This document shows positions 39,001-45,000 of a DNA stretch of 64,000 bases, in pieces. How positions within the stretch are numbered: position 1 is the first letter of the stretch; every line of letters starts with the position of its first letter. The DNA is from Candidatus Lustribacter sp. (GTDB taxonomy: Bacteria > Vulcanimicrobiota > Vulcanimicrobiia > Vulcanimicrobiales > Vulcanimicrobiaceae), in NCBI GenBank assembly GCA_965277805.1, contig OZ255842.1:2976001-3040000 (forward strand), in the 5' to 3' direction. A program made the position numbers.

Positions 39001-42000
39001 CGGTTCCTCCACGACAATCACCGGCAGCCGTTGCGCGAGCCGCGTGAGCAGATGGTGCGGGCGCTGCCAGACGCCGTCCCAACGCAAGTGCAAGCCGGCG
39101 ACGAAGATCTCGGGCGCGTTCACGCCGGTGCTTTGCCGGCCGCGCGCAAATGATCGCCTTCCGCGCGTCCCGCATCGCGCATCGCGACCAGTTCCGTCAA
39201 CGGCAACGCGCGATCCGCGCGCTCCCACCAGCCGCGCACGCCGGTATCGGCGATCTGCCCGTGCGCTGCCAATTCGCGCAGCGCGTCGGCCACGACGGTC
39301 GGTTGCGGCGTTCCGTCCCGTCCGGCAAACGTATAGATGCCGTCCTCAACCACGCTGCCGCGCTCGCGCAACAGCGAATGCCAATCCACCATGCCGAACG
39401 CCGCCCACGCACCGAGCGCACGCACGTCCACGCCGTCAGCGCGCAACGCCTGCACGTCGGCCGCGTGCTGCACGAGCCAGCGGATGCGCTCGGGTGCCGG
39501 CGCATGGACGTGCACTTCGCCCACCGCCAGCGGCAACTGCAACCGCTCGGCGGCCGCGCGCAGCATCGGCCCGATCGCCGGCGCCGGTTCGCCTTCGACG
39601 TAGACAGCCGGAACGTCACCGGCCGCCTCGGCTTGCGAAAACAAGTACCGCTCGGAGTGCGGGTAGTGATTGAACGCGACCAGATCGGGCACGGCCGCGT
39701 CGCGCTGCATCATCGCGAATTCCAGTTCGTTCACGCCGCAGTGTTCGGTGAGAAACTCCGCCAGCGGATGCGCGTCGCCGACGCGGCCGGCCACGAGTTC
39801 GGCCGATAAGAAGACCCGCTCGCGCAAGAACGCAACGTAATCCGCGACGCCGTCGTCGCCGGCCGTGAACCGCTGCAGATCCTCGGTGAGAACGAACTGC
39901 GCGTCCGGGATGACCTTGCGGATGCGGCGCAGCGCCGCTTGCTGGGCGAGCGTTTGGTTCACCATCGCGCGCCCGAACCCGCGATCGTCGCGCATGTTCG
40001 GATACCACACGCCGTCGAGCGTCGAGAAGCGCGCGGTCGTGAGCGGTTCGTTGATCGGCGTCCAGCGCCGGACCCACGGAAATGCGCGCGCCGCCGCCTC
40101 GGCGTACTGGGCGAACCACAACGGAAATGCGGGATCGAGTAAATCCGTGTACTGCGGTCCGCTGCCGTGATGCAGCAGCGTCACGATCGGCTCGATGCCC
40201 GCCGCGCGCAGCGCGTTTAGCCGGCGCTCGGGTTCGGTGAAGTCGTGCTCGTGCGGGCTATCCGGAGCGACGCGCTCCCACAACACCGGCGTCCGCGAAG
40301 CCGTCACGCCGAGCGCGGCGATCCGTTCCGCATCGCCCGACCGGACGTCGAGCCCCGTCTCCGCCGCTTGATCGCGCGTCGTGTTCGCGTCGATGCGGGC
40401 GAACGTCGGCTCGGGCGACGCCCAAAGTTCGAGCGGCAGCACTACGAACGCGTCGCCTGGTTGACGCTATCGATCCAAAACACGTACGGATCGGAGCCGG
40501 GCGTGTTTTGGATCAGCGCACGGCCCAGTTCTGCCCAGATCGCGCCGCGGGTCGGAACGAGGACGATGACCGGGCGCGCGGGCGGCGCCGGGTTCACGAC
40601 AGAACGGGCGAAGGCCGCGTACCGAGCCAGGTGGCGATGTCGGTCTTGGCGTCGACGTGCACGCCGTCGCGCAGTTCGCGCCGGAACTCACCGAACAGGC
40701 CGAAGGCCTCGGCAAACGCATCGTGCTTGTGGATCGATTCGTAGTTCACTTGCGTCGCGCTGATGAACGTGTCGTCGGGGAAATCCGCATACACGTCGAG
40801 CGCGCGCGCGAGGATGCCGCGCACGACGTCCTCGACGAACTTCGGATTCTGATGTGCTTTGTTGACGATGAAGAATTCGTCGGGCCGTTTGAGCAAGTCG
40901 TAGGTTTCGCTCGACATCGAGTTTTCGACGATCTCGACCAGATCTTCGGCGCGCAGGTGATCGGCGAATTCGCCGTCGGTGCCGATCAGCACCGAGCCGC
41001 GGCCGCGCTGGTTGTGGGTTGCCACCGGCAACGCATCGAGCGCGCGGTTCGCCTGTTCGGTCGTGAAGCCGGCCGCCTCGAGTTCGTGCAGCGAGTGTTC
41101 GCGCACCATCAACTGCGCGCACGGGCACGCGGTCATGCCCTCGGCCTCAATGCCGACCAGCCGCCGCGTGCGCGTCGCATCGGCGTGCGCGATCCCGACC
41201 AGCGTATACGTTTCTTCGGTGCGTTTGCCGCTGACCGGCGTCCAGCGTTCGAGCGCGAACTCCGCGCGCACGCGCACGTCGGCCCGGATCGCATCCTGCG
41301 AGGTGACGATCTCGCGCGCGATTTGCGCCACCAGATCCTCGACGCGCGCGGGACGATCGGGACGCCCGAGCACGTCGAGCGTCGCGGCTTCGAGCAGTTC
41401 GGAGAAACGCGACATGTGCACGCCGGCTTTGTCCGGGCGCAGGTCGGCGACCATCGTGAAGTCGGCGTTGAACACGCGCTCGGCGCCGCCGACGTTGAGC
41501 CGGATGATGTGCTTGACGCTCGAGACGCCGACGCGGTTGAGCGAGAGCCGCACGTCGGGTGCTTCTTCTTGCCGGTTGGCAAAGAAGTGCATCGCGCGGG
41601 CCTTGCGCGCGATACCGCGTACGTCTGCCGCATCGGCGATCTCGCGTATCGTCCGGCCGAGCCGCGGGTCGCGGTGCTCCGGGGCGATCTCGGCCAACGG
41701 CACGAGGTTGAACGGACGCGTCGCGATATAGCGATGCGGAACTTCGAAGCGGCCGAAGTCGGCCACCAGATCGTCGAAGTAGAGAATGTCGATGTCGATC
41801 GGGCGCGCGCTCAAGATCGCGGTCTGCTGCCGTCCAATCGCCACCTCGACCCCGCGCACGAACGTCTCGAACGCCTGCGCGTCGAGTTCGGTCGTGACAC
41901 GGGCGGCAACGTTGAGGAACGCCGGTCCCGCGACCCCGCCGGCCGGCGGCGTTTCGTAGTAGGACGACACGGCCTCGATGCGCGCTTGGCGGCGCAGCTT

Positions 42001-45000
42001 TTGCAGGGCACCGAGAATCGTGCCCTGGCGATCGCCGAGATTGGAGCCGAGGCCGATCAGGACGGAATGCATACGCGGCTTAGACCGCCGCTGAAGCACC
42101 GGAGTTGCCGCCCGGCGTGCCCGGCATGACGTCGGCGAGATCGAGCGTCGCGCGCCGGCCCGGCGCGATCGCGGCGAACATCCGCGCCAGCTGCACGGTC
42201 TCTTCCACGTCGTGCACGCGCAGCAGCCGCGCGCCGGCGGCGATGCCGATCGCGGCCGTGGCGAGCGAGGGCACCAGCAACTCCTTGGCCGGCCGCCGGA
42301 AGATGCGCCCGATGAAGCTCTTGCGCGAGCTGGCGAAGAGAATCGGATAGCCGAGCTCGCGCAGTTCGCCGAACCGGTCGAGGATCTCGAGATCCGTGCG
42401 CGGTTCCTTGCCGAACTCGAGGCCCGGATCGATGACGATCGCATCGCGCCGCACGCCTGCCGCGATCGCGCGGTCGGTGCGCTCGCGCAAGAACGCGATG
42501 ATCTCGCGCATCACGTCGACGTAGGTGTAACCGGCCGGATCGCGGACGTTCAGTTCACCCTTGAGGTGCATCACCACGAGCGCCGCATCGTGTTTAGCCA
42601 CGACGCCGGCGAGATCCGGATCGGAGAGCCCGCTGCAATCGTTGATGATGTCGGCACCGGCAGCGAGGGCCGCATCGGCAACGCTCGCCTTGAACGTGTC
42701 GATCGAGATCGTCAGATCGATCCCGGCCGCGCGAATCGCTTCGACCGCCGGCACCACGCGCTCGCGTTCCTCATCGGCCGTGATGCGGCGGTTCCACGAC
42801 GCGTACGACTGGCCGCCCACGTCGACCAGCGCGCCGCCCGCCGCGGCAATCGCACGCGCCCGCGCGACGACGTCATCGAGTCCCGCCGCGCGATCGTAGA
42901 ATGAATCCGGGGTCACGTTGACGATCCCCATCACGCGGGCTTCGTCGCGCAGATCGAGCGTGCGATCCCGCAGACGTAAGGAGCCGGTCAGAGCGGCCGC
43001 GTCGAGCTGGGGTGAAGGCTCGTATCGATGCGCGACCGCAGATCGTCGATGTGCGCGCGCGTCGCAACATCGGTCGCTGCGCGGTAAGCAGCGTCGAGGC
43101 GGCCGCGTACCTGGCGCAACTCGTAGCGCGAAAGAGCTTGGATCTCGCGCGGCACGCCGAGCTGATCCATCGAACCGCTGCTCAGAAACGCGATCTGTAT
43201 TTCCAGATCGGCAAAGCGCCGCTGCAGATCCTGATGCGGGGCCGGGATCGTGTGGGCGCCGAGATCGTCGAACACCGCAGCATTCGTCCACTCGAAGAGA
43301 TCGGACAAGCTCATCGTCTGACCAGGGTGCGCTTCCTTGAGCGACTCGTTGGCGATGCGCGAGATGCTGGCCGGATTGAACAGTTCGGAGATCGCCGCAT
43401 CCTGGAGTTGGGCCACGACCTCGCGGATCGGGAAATCGGTACGCCGGATCCCGCCCGTGCTCCAATCGGCGCCGTAACGAATCGGCGAAACGTCGTTGAG
43501 CAGCTCCGGCGAATATTTCAGCGCGTGCGAGGAAAGCACGTAGCGGTCGATCAGATCGAACGCCTTGCGCTGCTCGGCGCGCGGAATCGCGCTGAACGGC
43601 GGCAAGCCGCCGGGCTGTCCGCGATGCGAGCGCGAAGTGTACACGCCGCCCACGTAACGCGCCGCCATCGAAATGTTGGCGAGGTCGTTATTGAGCACGC
43701 TGATCAGCGTTTGGCGCAAATCCTGATAGCTGCGCGAATCGCCTTTATACGGGTGGGTCAGTTTCGCGGCGAGGTCGTCGTCGATGCGGAACTGGTCGCG
43801 GGCAAAGGCCAGCGGATCGTTCGAGAGGTCGAAGCGCTGGATGCGCGGATCGACCGCGTACGGATCGATCGTATCCTCATCGGTCCCGTAGGCCAGGCCC
43901 GGTTCGGTCGAACGCGCGGCGATCTTGTGCAGGTACGGCTGTTCCGCATCCGAGCTGTGCTGGTGGAGCGGCGAGTAGCCGTACGCGATCGCCCAATAGT
44001 CGTACGGACCGAGCTGGTTCGGAAAGTAGTCCGCTTGCCGCTCGCCGGGCGCGGCGATATTGGCCGGCGTGTAGTCCATCACCGAGCCCGTCGTGCCGTG
44101 CTCGTGCGTGAACGCGGGGTCGTGCAGCTCGGCGTACGTGAACGCCGTCGAGCCTTCGAAGTTGTGGCGCAAACCGAGCGTGTGCCCGACCTCGTGCATC
44201 ACGGTCGAATACAGGAAGGCTTGCGCATACGCTTCGCGCTTGGCGACGGTGCCGTGCTGCTGACCGATCAGCATCTCCATGCCGAGCGCGGCCTGATTCG
44301 CTTCGCTCTCTTCCGCATCGCACGTCATGTCGCCGGAAGTCATGAAGTCGTTGGTGGTCTCGGTCACGGTTGGTTGAAGCTGGTTCATCGCTTCGAACGC
44401 GTTGCGTTTGATCTGCAACACCGGCAACACGCGGTCCACGTAGCCGCGGCGCACCGCGCGCATCGATTCGCCGTCGACGACCACCTCGGTGCGGATGATC
44501 TGACCGGTATCGGGGTCGGAAACGTGCGGGCTGAGCGCGACGAAATCGGGCGCGTCCGACGTAATCCACCGTACGCTGTTGTAGCGCGCATCTTCGGGAT
44601 CGAACTTGGGATCGGTGGGCGGATCGTTCACGACGATCGCGTGCGGGTAGCCGATTCTGGCGAACGCCGCATTCCAGGCCAAGATCCCGCGCCGCACGGT
44701 GTTGCGGTAGATCGGCGGGATTTCGTTGGTCAACGTGAAGACGATCGGGCCGGCATCGAGATTCCAGCGATCGATGAACCGTTGCGTCGGCAGCGTCGAG
44801 ACGTCGTTGCCGAAATGCTTGCGCGCGGTGATGAAGTAGCCGACGCGGTCGTCGGCATAGCGTGGAACGTAGTTGGGATCGTGCGCGGGCGGCGCTACGA
44901 TGCTGTAGTGCACGACGAGCGGAATGCCGCGGCCGTCGGGCACGGTGGGCAGCGCGGCGGCCGGACCGTTGAAGGTCAGGTTGACCGAGATCTCGTCGTT

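Follow-up and report, generated by a model that had tools for sequence, protein, structure and literature searches.

A FolK–MptA-type GTP cyclohydrolase fusion as the probable entry to pterin synthesis in Vulcanimicrobiia, with an accessory FolP2 paralogue

A gene that joins an HPPK (FolK) domain to an MptA-type GTP cyclohydrolase would be the housekeeping GTP cyclohydrolase I of the class Vulcanimicrobiia, with an HPPK part that is altered in the family of the source genome (f1) and an accessory FolP2 neighbour that most likely makes no dihydropteroate. As judged from sequence comparison, this proposal as a whole has a probability of roughly 0.7. The gene lies in the genome of a Candidatus Lustribacter sp., in a window (the whole stretch of DNA analysed) of 64,000 nucleotides, where it occupies positions 40594..42072 of the reverse strand and forms a single frame of 492 amino acids with an ATG at 42072. 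Pfam places the HPPK domain at residues 6–131 (41680..42057, reverse strand) and the GCHY-1 domain, an MptA-type GTP cyclohydrolase IB, at residues 168–454 (40711..41571, reverse strand), in agreement with the initial annotation, and both domains are present in 120/120 of the best homologues.

The fusion is at least partly present in all 81 Vulcanimicrobiia relatives, 75 of which contain it at full length without stops, one at full length with one TAG, and five in pieces or partially; it is absent from 69 genomes of other classes, which yielded single-domain matches (best E 3e-22). Its earlier description as a core gene of the class and as the only GTP cyclohydrolase I-type enzyme of the genome is borne out: FolE was found neither in the source genome nor in any of the 101 class genomes, and tblastn detected no second GCHY-1 copy. 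These observations support the fusion as the sole, class-wide entry to pterin synthesis in Vulcanimicrobiia. It is not peculiar to the class, as had been implied, since 19 Chloroflexota loci, outside both class and phylum, carry an HPPK-MptA fusion. FolE accompanies the fusion in 3/3 Chloroflexota fusion genomes tested, and the term sole entry is therefore restricted to Vulcanimicrobiia. A further decayed version, with no HPPK Pfam match, occurs in Thermosynergistes, and the fusion is probably old and common to some Chloroflexota and Synergistota. Nor does the pairing lack precedent: according to passages of PMC6153639, folKE of Lactococcus lactis encodes an HPPK-GTP cyclohydrolase I fusion with a type IA enzyme. 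As in FolKE, one gene covers the first and the fourth step of the pterin branch, but the cyclohydrolase here is of type IB/MptA (PF02649 only), whereas that of FolKE is a FolE (PF01227). By analogy, the HPPK-MptA fusion probably works like FolKE without being one, and appears to have arisen independently, in other phyla, as its convergent counterpart.

The fusion passes the MptA model TIGR00294 (260.1, cut-off 220) and fails the FolE2 model NF010200 (147.1, cut-off 215), which reproduces the scores first reported. It falls far below the stricter GTP cyclohydrolase IV model NF010204 (PRK13675; 140.6, cut-off 468), but an archaeal Natrinema protein annotated as MptA fails this model too (104.8), so NF010204 is a narrow model. 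Seven active-site positions of the cyclohydrolase domain (C316, C318, H353, E399, H407, E445 and H448) show no variation across 120/120 and 36/36 sequences. The cut-off passed, the tree position, a 25-residue insert after the CPC motif, His407 and a C-terminal extension are shared with archaeal MptA (GTP cyclohydrolase IV; M. jannaschii MJ0775 and H. volcanii HVO_2348; treated in passages of PMC8305020). The CPC, HNQR, LKRPDE and ESIH motifs are kept as in bacterial FolE2 (GCYH-IB; N. gonorrhoeae, PDB entry 3d2o), which lacks the insert and shows only 26–31% identity. In a quick, midpoint-rooted tree with five FolE2 rows, FolE2 forms a separate branch (100), whereas the bacterial MptA-type clade (80 rows, SH-aLRT 99) is placed among archaeal MptA. 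The enzyme described here differs from the archaeal ones by its place in a bacterial subclade (32–41% identity to archaeal members) and by its fusion to HPPK. The claim that the domain is closest to archaeal MptA stands for curated entries only; overall, bacterial MptA-type domains are closer (43–54% identity, against 41% for the best archaeal one), and the sequences thus suggest membership in a wider bacterial MptA-type clade rather than a directly archaeal enzyme.

The MptA-type domain would convert GTP to a 7,8-dihydroneopterin phosphate, either the triphosphate or the 2′,3′-cyclic phosphate, the latter at slightly less than even odds. After dephosphorylation this compound would pass to FolB, FolK, FolP1 and FolC, and the same pterin product may also feed QueD for queuosine; QueD scores above its cut-off and adjoins a QueE-like gene. 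The normal folate genes reported besides the fusion were recovered as a separate folC-folP-folB-folK locus with the GGESTRPG loop. No gene for the dephosphorylation step was identified in the source genome, where none of the 17 HD proteins carries the NCBIfam name MptB, a comparison by name only. FolA is absent from all 101 class genomes and a recognisable PabB from 83 of them, so that the downstream folate pathway has gaps. Where a PabB-PabC-type gene exists, it is near the fusion in 10/18 genomes (within 2 kb in nine, at 7 kb in one), and in one Anaerolineales locus a canonical folP lies directly downstream of the fusion. This gene context, like the pairing of QueD with a QueE-like gene, also favours the fusion as the entry to pterin synthesis.

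The fused HPPK domain passes TIGR01498 (94.9, cut-off 54.1) with its Arg/Asp catalytic set present, is identical at 8/11 positions mutated in E. coli structures, and conserves residues equivalent to E. coli N10, N55, E77, R82, R92, D95, D97, H115, R121 and F123; substitutions are Q50→G, Y53→F, R84→Q, W89→L and P91→A. In family f3 the fused domains score 117–136 bits and retain the loop 2 Gln and the loop 3 Pro in 5/5 loci. A single HPPK is present in 20/32 f3 genomes, and it is the fused one in all eight with comparable coordinates, so that the fused domain appears canonical and is often the only FolK of this family. All 67 f1 genomes contain two HPPKs, a stand-alone FolK and the fused domain, which scores 88–113 bits in those listed and seems to have drifted: the loop 2 Gln and the aromatic-Gly-Pro-Arg motif of loop 3 are missing (G49 in 30/30 loci, A89 in 29/30), N122 is fixed in 30/30, and a hairpin of 8–9 residues is deleted in 13/30. 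The hairpin is short in seven further genomes without FolP2 and intact in all 15 genomes with FolP2. Sequence and copy number together suggest that the fused HPPK was originally a working FolK and still is one in f3, whereas in f1 the stand-alone FolK would carry folate synthesis.

The omega of the fused HPPK is 0.04–0.35 in 11 f1 pairs and stays at 0.07–0.18 where the hairpin is deleted. This purifying selection, the retention of the domain in all 67 f1 genomes despite the stand-alone FolK, the family-fixed changes and the decayed Thermosynergistes version would fit a pseudo-kinase whose binding of 6-hydroxymethyl-dihydropterin exerts feedback on the cyclohydrolase, or one that does no more than stabilise this enzyme. 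We regard this as possible but doubtful: R81, R90, D93 and D95 are present in 119/120 close homologues, as in the active kinase, the HPPK dN, which is 1.7–2.5 times that of the cyclohydrolase in 10/12 f1 pairs, equally fits relaxed constraint, and in the model of one relative the domains are not packed in a defined way (pTM 0.61). The preferred reading is a domain under selection yet altered, which is probably weakly active in the FolP2 lineages and has probably lost its kinase function where the hairpin is deleted.

The paralogue folP2 (42080..42991, reverse strand) ends 7 nucleotides ahead of the fusion, which it directly adjoins in 11/15 genomes. Its start is uncertain; the candidates are ATG 42931, GTG 42934 and CTG 42991, the last of which overlaps the stop of the upstream gene. 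That gene encodes a Met-zincin (DUF5117/DUF4953; 42988..45804, reverse strand), is often found upstream, and abuts folP2 with its stop. FolP2 occurs in 14/100 class relatives (13/67, 1/1 and 0/32 by family) and not in 14 of 31 genomes as stated before; at 14% it is accessory and outside the class core. Canonical FolP1 is kept in all 15 FolP2 genomes. In FolP2 the canonical loop 2 S[TS]RPG is replaced by SYA(H/S)WN (GGQSYASWN here), and the Gly before the pABA-stacking Phe by E192 (DPGLEFGK). The replacement of GGESTRPG thus stands, but the full motif GG[QA]SYA[HS]WN, described as invariant in 12 of 12 loci, is found in 12/16, the loci of G127, G138, G117 and G055 lacking WN. Among 49 database proteins GGQSY is present in 49 and WN in 40. 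Conserved in all 49 are N25, D29, S30, F31, S62, D98, N117, D188, F193, K224, R258 and H260, with S225 in 48, and the canonical pterin, Mg and PPi residues are kept throughout. Among these positions are the counterparts of residues that contact pterin, PPi and pABA in Sul enzymes, which leaves room for DHPS activity.

An active DHPS with a changed acceptor pocket (suited to scavenging pABA or pABA-glutamate, or not inhibited by sulfonamides), forming a second folate route with the fused HPPK, would agree with these residues, with the placement of folP2 next to the fusion, with a confidently predicted DHPS fold (Z 35.9) and with the shift in sulfa discrimination caused by changes at loop 2 Thr62 and helix 6 in E. 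coli FolP and Sul (PMC10328974). FolP2 also passes TIGR01496 (267.6, cut-off 162.6), but actinobacterial FolP2-type proteins pass as well (241–291 bits), so that this score is uninformative on activity. The presence of FolP1 in all 15 genomes, the Glu in place of an invariant Gly beside the pABA pocket and the lack of a link to pABA supply (PabB in 4/15 FolP2 genomes and 14/86 others, consistent with the earlier remark that the two do not anticorrelate) make this reading unlikely.

The acidic residue at the Gly position connects FolP2 with the actinobacterial FolP2 proteins (Rv1207 type; PDB entry 2vp8): it is D in 9/9 of these, E in 7/7 of the FolP2 type described here, and acidic in 49/49 database proteins, whereas canonical DHPS has G in 33/33. 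Both groups are second FolPs beside a canonical one, with a rebuilt loop 2 and glycosyltransferase neighbours, and both split from canonical DHPS on the same branch side (99/94; 87 without the motif columns), in a tree where both have long branches, long-branch attraction is possible, and the choice of the actinobacterial set was made with the first tree in view. Unlike the actinobacterial proteins, those described here have GGQSYA(H)WN instead of GGVK in loop 2, an N-terminal domain in most relatives, no column-238 Arg (kept in 7/9 actinobacterial ones), and the MptA fusion and a GT4/GH1 pair as neighbours; neither GGVK nor gpgS is found at folP2 of the source genome. Actinobacterial FolP2 fails to complement folP, according to a passage of PMC1971073, and has been termed defective (PMC7809127). 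The paralogue, first described as a second DHPS with a replaced pABA loop, is probably a non-standard second dihydropteroate synthase, better read as an accessory protein that belongs to the actinobacterial family, or is sister to it, than as a DHPS with a swapped loop. It would bind pterin pyrophosphate and most likely make no dihydropteroate from pABA.

Downstream of the fusion lie a GH1-family glycoside hydrolase gene (39120..40442, reverse strand), which co-occurs with folP2, and a GT4-type glycosyltransferase gene (38065..39228, reverse strand; true start probably near 39160), which belong to a GT4-glf-GH1 module for galactofuranose. GH1 (E≤3e-116) and GT4 (E≤1e-89) are found in exactly the 15 FolP2 genomes and glf in 14 of them. 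Because the fusion separates folP2 from GH1 and glf is located elsewhere, co-loss needs separate deletions, and G053 and G099 lack all four genes within a genus that otherwise has them. An undescribed branch may be imagined in which FolP2, supplied with DHPPP by the altered fused HPPK, passes the dihydropterin-methyl cation on to an acceptor that bears galactofuranose and is made by this module; the product would be a glycoside of pterin or a glycosylated analogue of folate. The hairpin retained in every FolP2 genome and the combination of kept pterin and PPi-release residues with a rebuilt acceptor side (T→Y63, G→E192, R→L238) are in line with this idea, as are the glycosyltransferase gene gpgS near actinobacterial folP2 in 2/9 loci and the adjoining 'cell wall synthesis genes' mentioned in a passage of PMC1971073. 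Passages of PMC3546692 offer cyanopterin (Synechocystis PgtA) as a precedent for a 6-hydroxymethylpterin galactoside, but one made by a glycosyltransferase without FolP. The co-occurrence amounts to three independent contrasts only (sign test p 0.25) and could be due to ancestral shared gene content; the module also stands by itself, without FolP2, in 4/86 genomes, and the GH1/GT4 copies of G117 and G127 are more distant ones that sit in a glf cluster at another place. We consider such a branch improbable.

In 13/16 FolP2 relatives a folded N-terminal α/β domain of 115–130 residues precedes the DHPS fold. With FolA missing from all 101 genomes, and with a dihydropteroate reductase fused to DHPS on record in passages of PMC1971073, this domain could be a reductase that replaces DHFR, as the fused enzyme does in some bacteria, but this is very unlikely: 86/101 genomes lack both FolP2 and FolA, 3/16 FolP2 proteins, including that of the source genome, have lost the domain, and it has no Pfam match, an Atlas value below 0.8 and, with a best E of 6e-5, only a weak resemblance to the N-domain that ordinary DHPS of the long form carries. 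Least probable is an archaeal-style methanopterin route, with a cyclic phosphate from MptA and a ribosyl-aminobenzene acceptor condensed by FolP2: the MptA-type insert and His407 would suit it, and MptA-clade relatives occur in H4MPT clusters (in a scan of 80 loci, with one member taken per cluster, Ftr-like genes were present in 8, Mch-like ones in 7 and DUF6513 pterin-binding ones in 8), but the source genome (95% complete) has neither MptG nor Mch, and FolP2 is of the TIGR01496 type, against the TIGR00284-like type of H4MPT clusters.

The proposed function of the fusion names the pterin entry enzyme of an abundant soil class without FolE and FolA, and outlines a bacterial MptA-type clade in Vulcanimicrobiia, Chloroflexota, Thermoleophilia and Synergistota, on which the rule that assigns different products to archaeal and bacterial type IB cyclohydrolases can be tested. 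The HPPK-cyclohydrolase fusion would have arisen twice, with different cyclohydrolase families, and the fused HPPKs, to judge from their sequences, may form a natural series from active to decayed. Most useful is the occurrence of a FolP2-like protein beyond the Actinobacteria, within a pterin operon and accompanied by a sugar module: what this paralogue does has been a question since 2007 or earlier, and its setting here offers a concrete starting point. If the glycoconjugate branch were true, it would represent a new pterin glycoconjugate, and the FolP2 family, including mycobacterial FolP2, would be pterinyl transferases for glycans.

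The folK-mptA fusion occupies positions 40594-42072 of the minus strand as a single frame of 492 amino acids, consisting of an HPPK domain (residues 6-131) and an MptA-type GTP cyclohydrolase IB domain (GCHY-1, residues 168-454). Its NCBIfam scores exceed the cut-offs of TIGR00294 (260.1; cut-off 220) and folK (94.9; cut-off 54.1) and lie below those of NF010200 (147.1; 215) and NF010204 (140.6; 468). The folP2 gene, which encodes a DHPS-fold paralogue (42080-42991, minus strand), has its 3' end 7 bases upstream of the fusion. Genes for a GH1 hydrolase and for a GT4 glycosyltransferase follow downstream, and one for a zincin is located upstream. 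At 32629-35557, frames that by eye resemble phytoene-synthase and desaturase adjoin Mrp-like and M48 peptidase genes, both common neighbours of the fusion. The genome is 95% complete and contains no FolE, one GCHY-1 copy, two HPPK genes and three pterin-binding genes, the third of which, within a 1153-aa frame, is probably MetH; a folC-folP-folB-folK run is located at a separate site. Named homologues of the fusion occur in Ca. Velthaea, Ca. Elarobacter and Vulcanimicrobium alpinum (WPS_26460, 78% identical), which assigns it to the Vulcanimicrobiia, and both domains are already annotated in databases.

Residues C316, C318, H353, E399, H407, E445 and H448 of the cyclohydrolase domain are invariant in 120/120 close homologues and in 36/36 loci of the class, and four of these align with residues C147, C149, H159 and E201 in the Neisseria enzyme. 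Like archaeal MptA, the domain has His407 and 25 inserted residues after CPC; FolE2, to which it is 26-31% identical, lacks both. The initial annotation described it as closest to archaeal MptA; however, it is 43-54% identical to other bacterial MptA-type proteins and 32-41% to archaeal MptA. A quick tree of 121 domains unites the bacterial proteins in a clade of 80 rows (SH-aLRT 99) that lies among archaeal MptA; the five FolE2 rows branch separately (100). These trees cannot name a donor for the domain.

Within the Vulcanimicrobiia the fusion is indeed class-wide, with a full frame in 75 of 81 relatives (one of them the unpublished genome G128), a single TAG in one and pieces or partial copies in five, while 69 genomes of other classes show at most single-domain matches. 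Beyond the class, distant fusions were used as queries in a genome scan that gave at least 595 loci, of which the 80 best were retained. Among these 80, 29 are fused in one frame: 10 from Vulcanimicrobiia, assigned by title, identity or tree, and 19 from Chloroflexota (Anaerolineae, Chloroflexia, Ktedonobacteraceae and Thermogemmatispora). The same 80 include one further Chloroflexota locus with both domains and a frame break, one with a cyclohydrolase match only, a Synergistales locus whose HPPK is decayed, and 48 loci with actinomycete titles and a stand-alone cyclohydrolase. In an even sample of Chloroflexota the full fusion is present in 13 of 251 genomes, sample centre included. FolE is also present in 3/3 Chloroflexota fusion genomes checked; the five genomes of this check included the unpublished G177. 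HPPK and GTP cyclohydrolase I are already joined in L. lactis folKE, according to a passage of PMC6153639. The fusion is real and well bounded, and less singular than had been claimed. Loci L140 ('Ca. Binatus') and L129 do not add further phyla, since they are placed in another family of the class (f3) and have f3 neighbours. Two separate origins for the two orders were not shown, a single clade being compatible with the data (p-AU 0.59).

Two fusions, P0134 and P0143, show the reverse of the window's family, with a canonical HPPK and a drifting cyclohydrolase (HNQR to HSQR or HAQR); P0143 falls below the TIGR00294 cut-off. As both branch within the stand-alone actinobacterial group, they may represent a separate fusion event. 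At L087-L091, L093 and L095, a PTPS gene whose product carries a CE-x-LHGH motif immediately adjoins the Chloroflexota fusions; by motif rules, this PTPS could bypass FolB and the pyrophosphatase.

The fused HPPK differs between the families. In f3 a single HPPK is present in 20 of 32 genomes, and it is the fused one in 8/8 comparable cases; all 67 genomes of the window's family (f1) contain two. Fused f3 domains score 117-136 bits and fused f1 domains 88-113 bits among the matches listed. Of 11 positions at which mutant E. coli structures exist, the window's domain retains 8 and has changes at Q50, Y53 and W89. G49, A89 and N122 are almost fixed across f1, and f3 loci are canonical at these positions (5/5). 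Omega for HPPK is 0.04-0.35 in 11 f1 pairs, a further pair being saturated. A hairpin of 8-9 residues before the His, which would line the ATP site, is deleted in 13 of 30 f1 loci and short in seven more genomes, all of them FolP2-less; it is intact in 15/15 FolP2 genomes and in four without FolP2 (G053, G099, G063 and G137). The deletion may reflect one or two events only. A literature search on HPPK residues returned nothing.

The gene context of the fusion points to folate and queuosine. Among 101 genomes of the class, including the unpublished G128, G159 and G166 (no conclusion rests on these or on the other unpublished genomes), FolK occurs in 101 and FolP in 99; FolE and FolA occur in none, and a PabB-type gene is absent from 83. 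A weak ThyX match (48 bits) lies at G000:C1:3894650-3895105 of the window's genome. QueD scores above its cut-off and lacks the Glu motif. Archaeal MptA requires a cyclic phosphodiesterase, according to passages of PMC8305020; none of the 17 HD proteins of the window's genome is named as such. The PabB-PabC-type gene, found in 18/101 genomes and neighbouring the fusion in 10, matches ADC synthase models best, below cut-off in the eight tested. At L175-L184 (G081, G144, G095, G059, G043, G111, G114, G101, G093 and G061, all FolP2-less) this fused gene, mostly with a ManA-like gene next, is upstream of the folK-mptA fusion in divergent orientation and occupies the site held elsewhere by folP2. 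Several members of the bacterial MptA-type clade reside in H4MPT clusters; in Chloroflexota, Thermoleophilia and Synergistales such genes, fused or not, occur within C1 clusters linked to H4MPT (L087, L090, L091, L094-L096, L098-L100 and L108). A methanopterin pathway in the window's genome was rejected, MptG and Mch both being absent. CADD as a source of pABA was likewise rejected, with just two weak matches (31 and 24 bits versus 200); at L189 (G000:C1:299700-308500) two proteins resembling heme oxygenase, which score weakly for CADD, are encoded close to a gene of the enolase family and one for a binding protein.

FolP2 had been counted in 14 of 31 genomes; the count is now 14 of 100 relatives, in which the match reaches at least 52% identity; no other best match exceeds 47%. 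In 11 of 15 genomes the gene immediately precedes the fusion, and in the remaining four it lies 1.3-17 kb upstream of it. In G126 a second, partial folP2 copy, broken by transposase-like frames, lies between folP2 and the fusion (L069:11438-12969). The loop motif proposed initially, GG[QAR]SYA[SAH]WN, holds in 12 of 16 loci but not in the other four. Across 49 FolP2 proteins GGQSY, NDCS, DPGLEFGK and Leu238 are invariant, as are the residues for pterin, Mg and PPi (roles after passages of PMC10328974). An N-terminal domain, weakly resembling that of long-form DHPS, is present in 13 of 16 FolP2 and confidently folded in a relative (pLDDT 91.6). The window's FolP2 lacks it: at 42931-42991 folP2 abuts the zincin stop, and the segment that encodes the N-terminal domain in relatives is missing together with the spacer (~660 bp between matches in G145). 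Short-read contigs (three runs of one sample, which may itself be the source sample) span the junction without differences. A role as general substitute for missing FolA is ruled out (FolA 0/101 genomes), and one as PabB substitute was rejected for want of anticorrelation, PabB occurring in 4/15 FolP2 genomes versus 14/86 others.

In a tree of 67 DHPS rows, from which the actinobacterial group was defined, FolP2 is joined to nine actinobacterial second copies (96). A careful tree of 49 rows, which excluded near-duplicates, five Vulcanimicrobiia FolP2 rows and the very long branch L243, retains the grouping (99/94; 87 with motif columns removed), which long-branch attraction could possibly explain; the unpublished G476 supplies one canonical row. 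The E192 column is Asp in 9/9 actinobacterial and Gly in 33/33 canonical rows. A gpgS gene adjoins 2 of 9 actinobacterial copies, and one locus has the Rv1205-Rv1210 gene order. At L211, L214 and L225 an actinobacterial FolP2 subgroup (GGVKAAAG) has an adjoining xanthine/uracil-family permease (3/3), a hint of uptake or salvage. Searches of plasmids and of 121 Actinomycetota genomes centred on the unpublished G177 yielded no close orthologue of FolP2 (best 48% in the genomes). Since the actinobacterial group also exceeds TIGR01496, that score is no proof of activity. Actinobacterial folP2 is reported to lie in a cluster with genes of the cell wall, and the M. leprae gene not to complement folP (PMC1971073); actinobacterial folP2 is also described as predicted to be defective, its deletion increasing sulfamethoxazole sensitivity (PMC7809127).

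FolP2 is always accompanied by the GT4-glf-GH1 (galactofuranose) module (15/15), which occurs without FolP2 in 4/86 genomes, one of them the unpublished G166. Close GH1 matches are confined to the 15 FolP2 genomes, all of which have one, and four further genomes have weaker matches; GT4 is distributed likewise, plus G063, and glf is present in 14/15 FolP2 genomes and those four. The genes are clustered in the five loci examined, 3/5 near galT-galK or a UDP-sugar dehydrogenase. On a tree of 44 fusions the pattern requires four changes and provides three independent contrasts (p 0.25). Because of these few contrasts, and because the GH1/GT4 copies of G117 and G127 are more distant in sequence and sited elsewhere, the link between FolP2 and the module carries little weight.

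No literature on the MptA version of the fusion was found within coverage that mostly excludes subscription journals; the supplement of PMC1971073 contains neither 'fusion' nor 'fused', and 'mptA' is not mentioned in the passages of PMC5020050 consulted. Taken jointly, the fusion would supply dihydroneopterin phosphate to folate and queuosine synthesis, the fused HPPK would be an ancestral FolK, released where a stand-alone FolK exists, and FolP2 would be a paralogue that binds pterin pyrophosphate outside normal folate synthesis; to these predicted roles together we assign a probability of about 0.7. It is a long shot that FolP2 retains the PPi-release/pterin-cation chemistry with an acceptor side rebuilt for a sugar-bearing partner of the galactofuranose module, for which cyanopterin is a loose precedent (passages of PMC3546692). 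FolP2 is a worthwhile lead.
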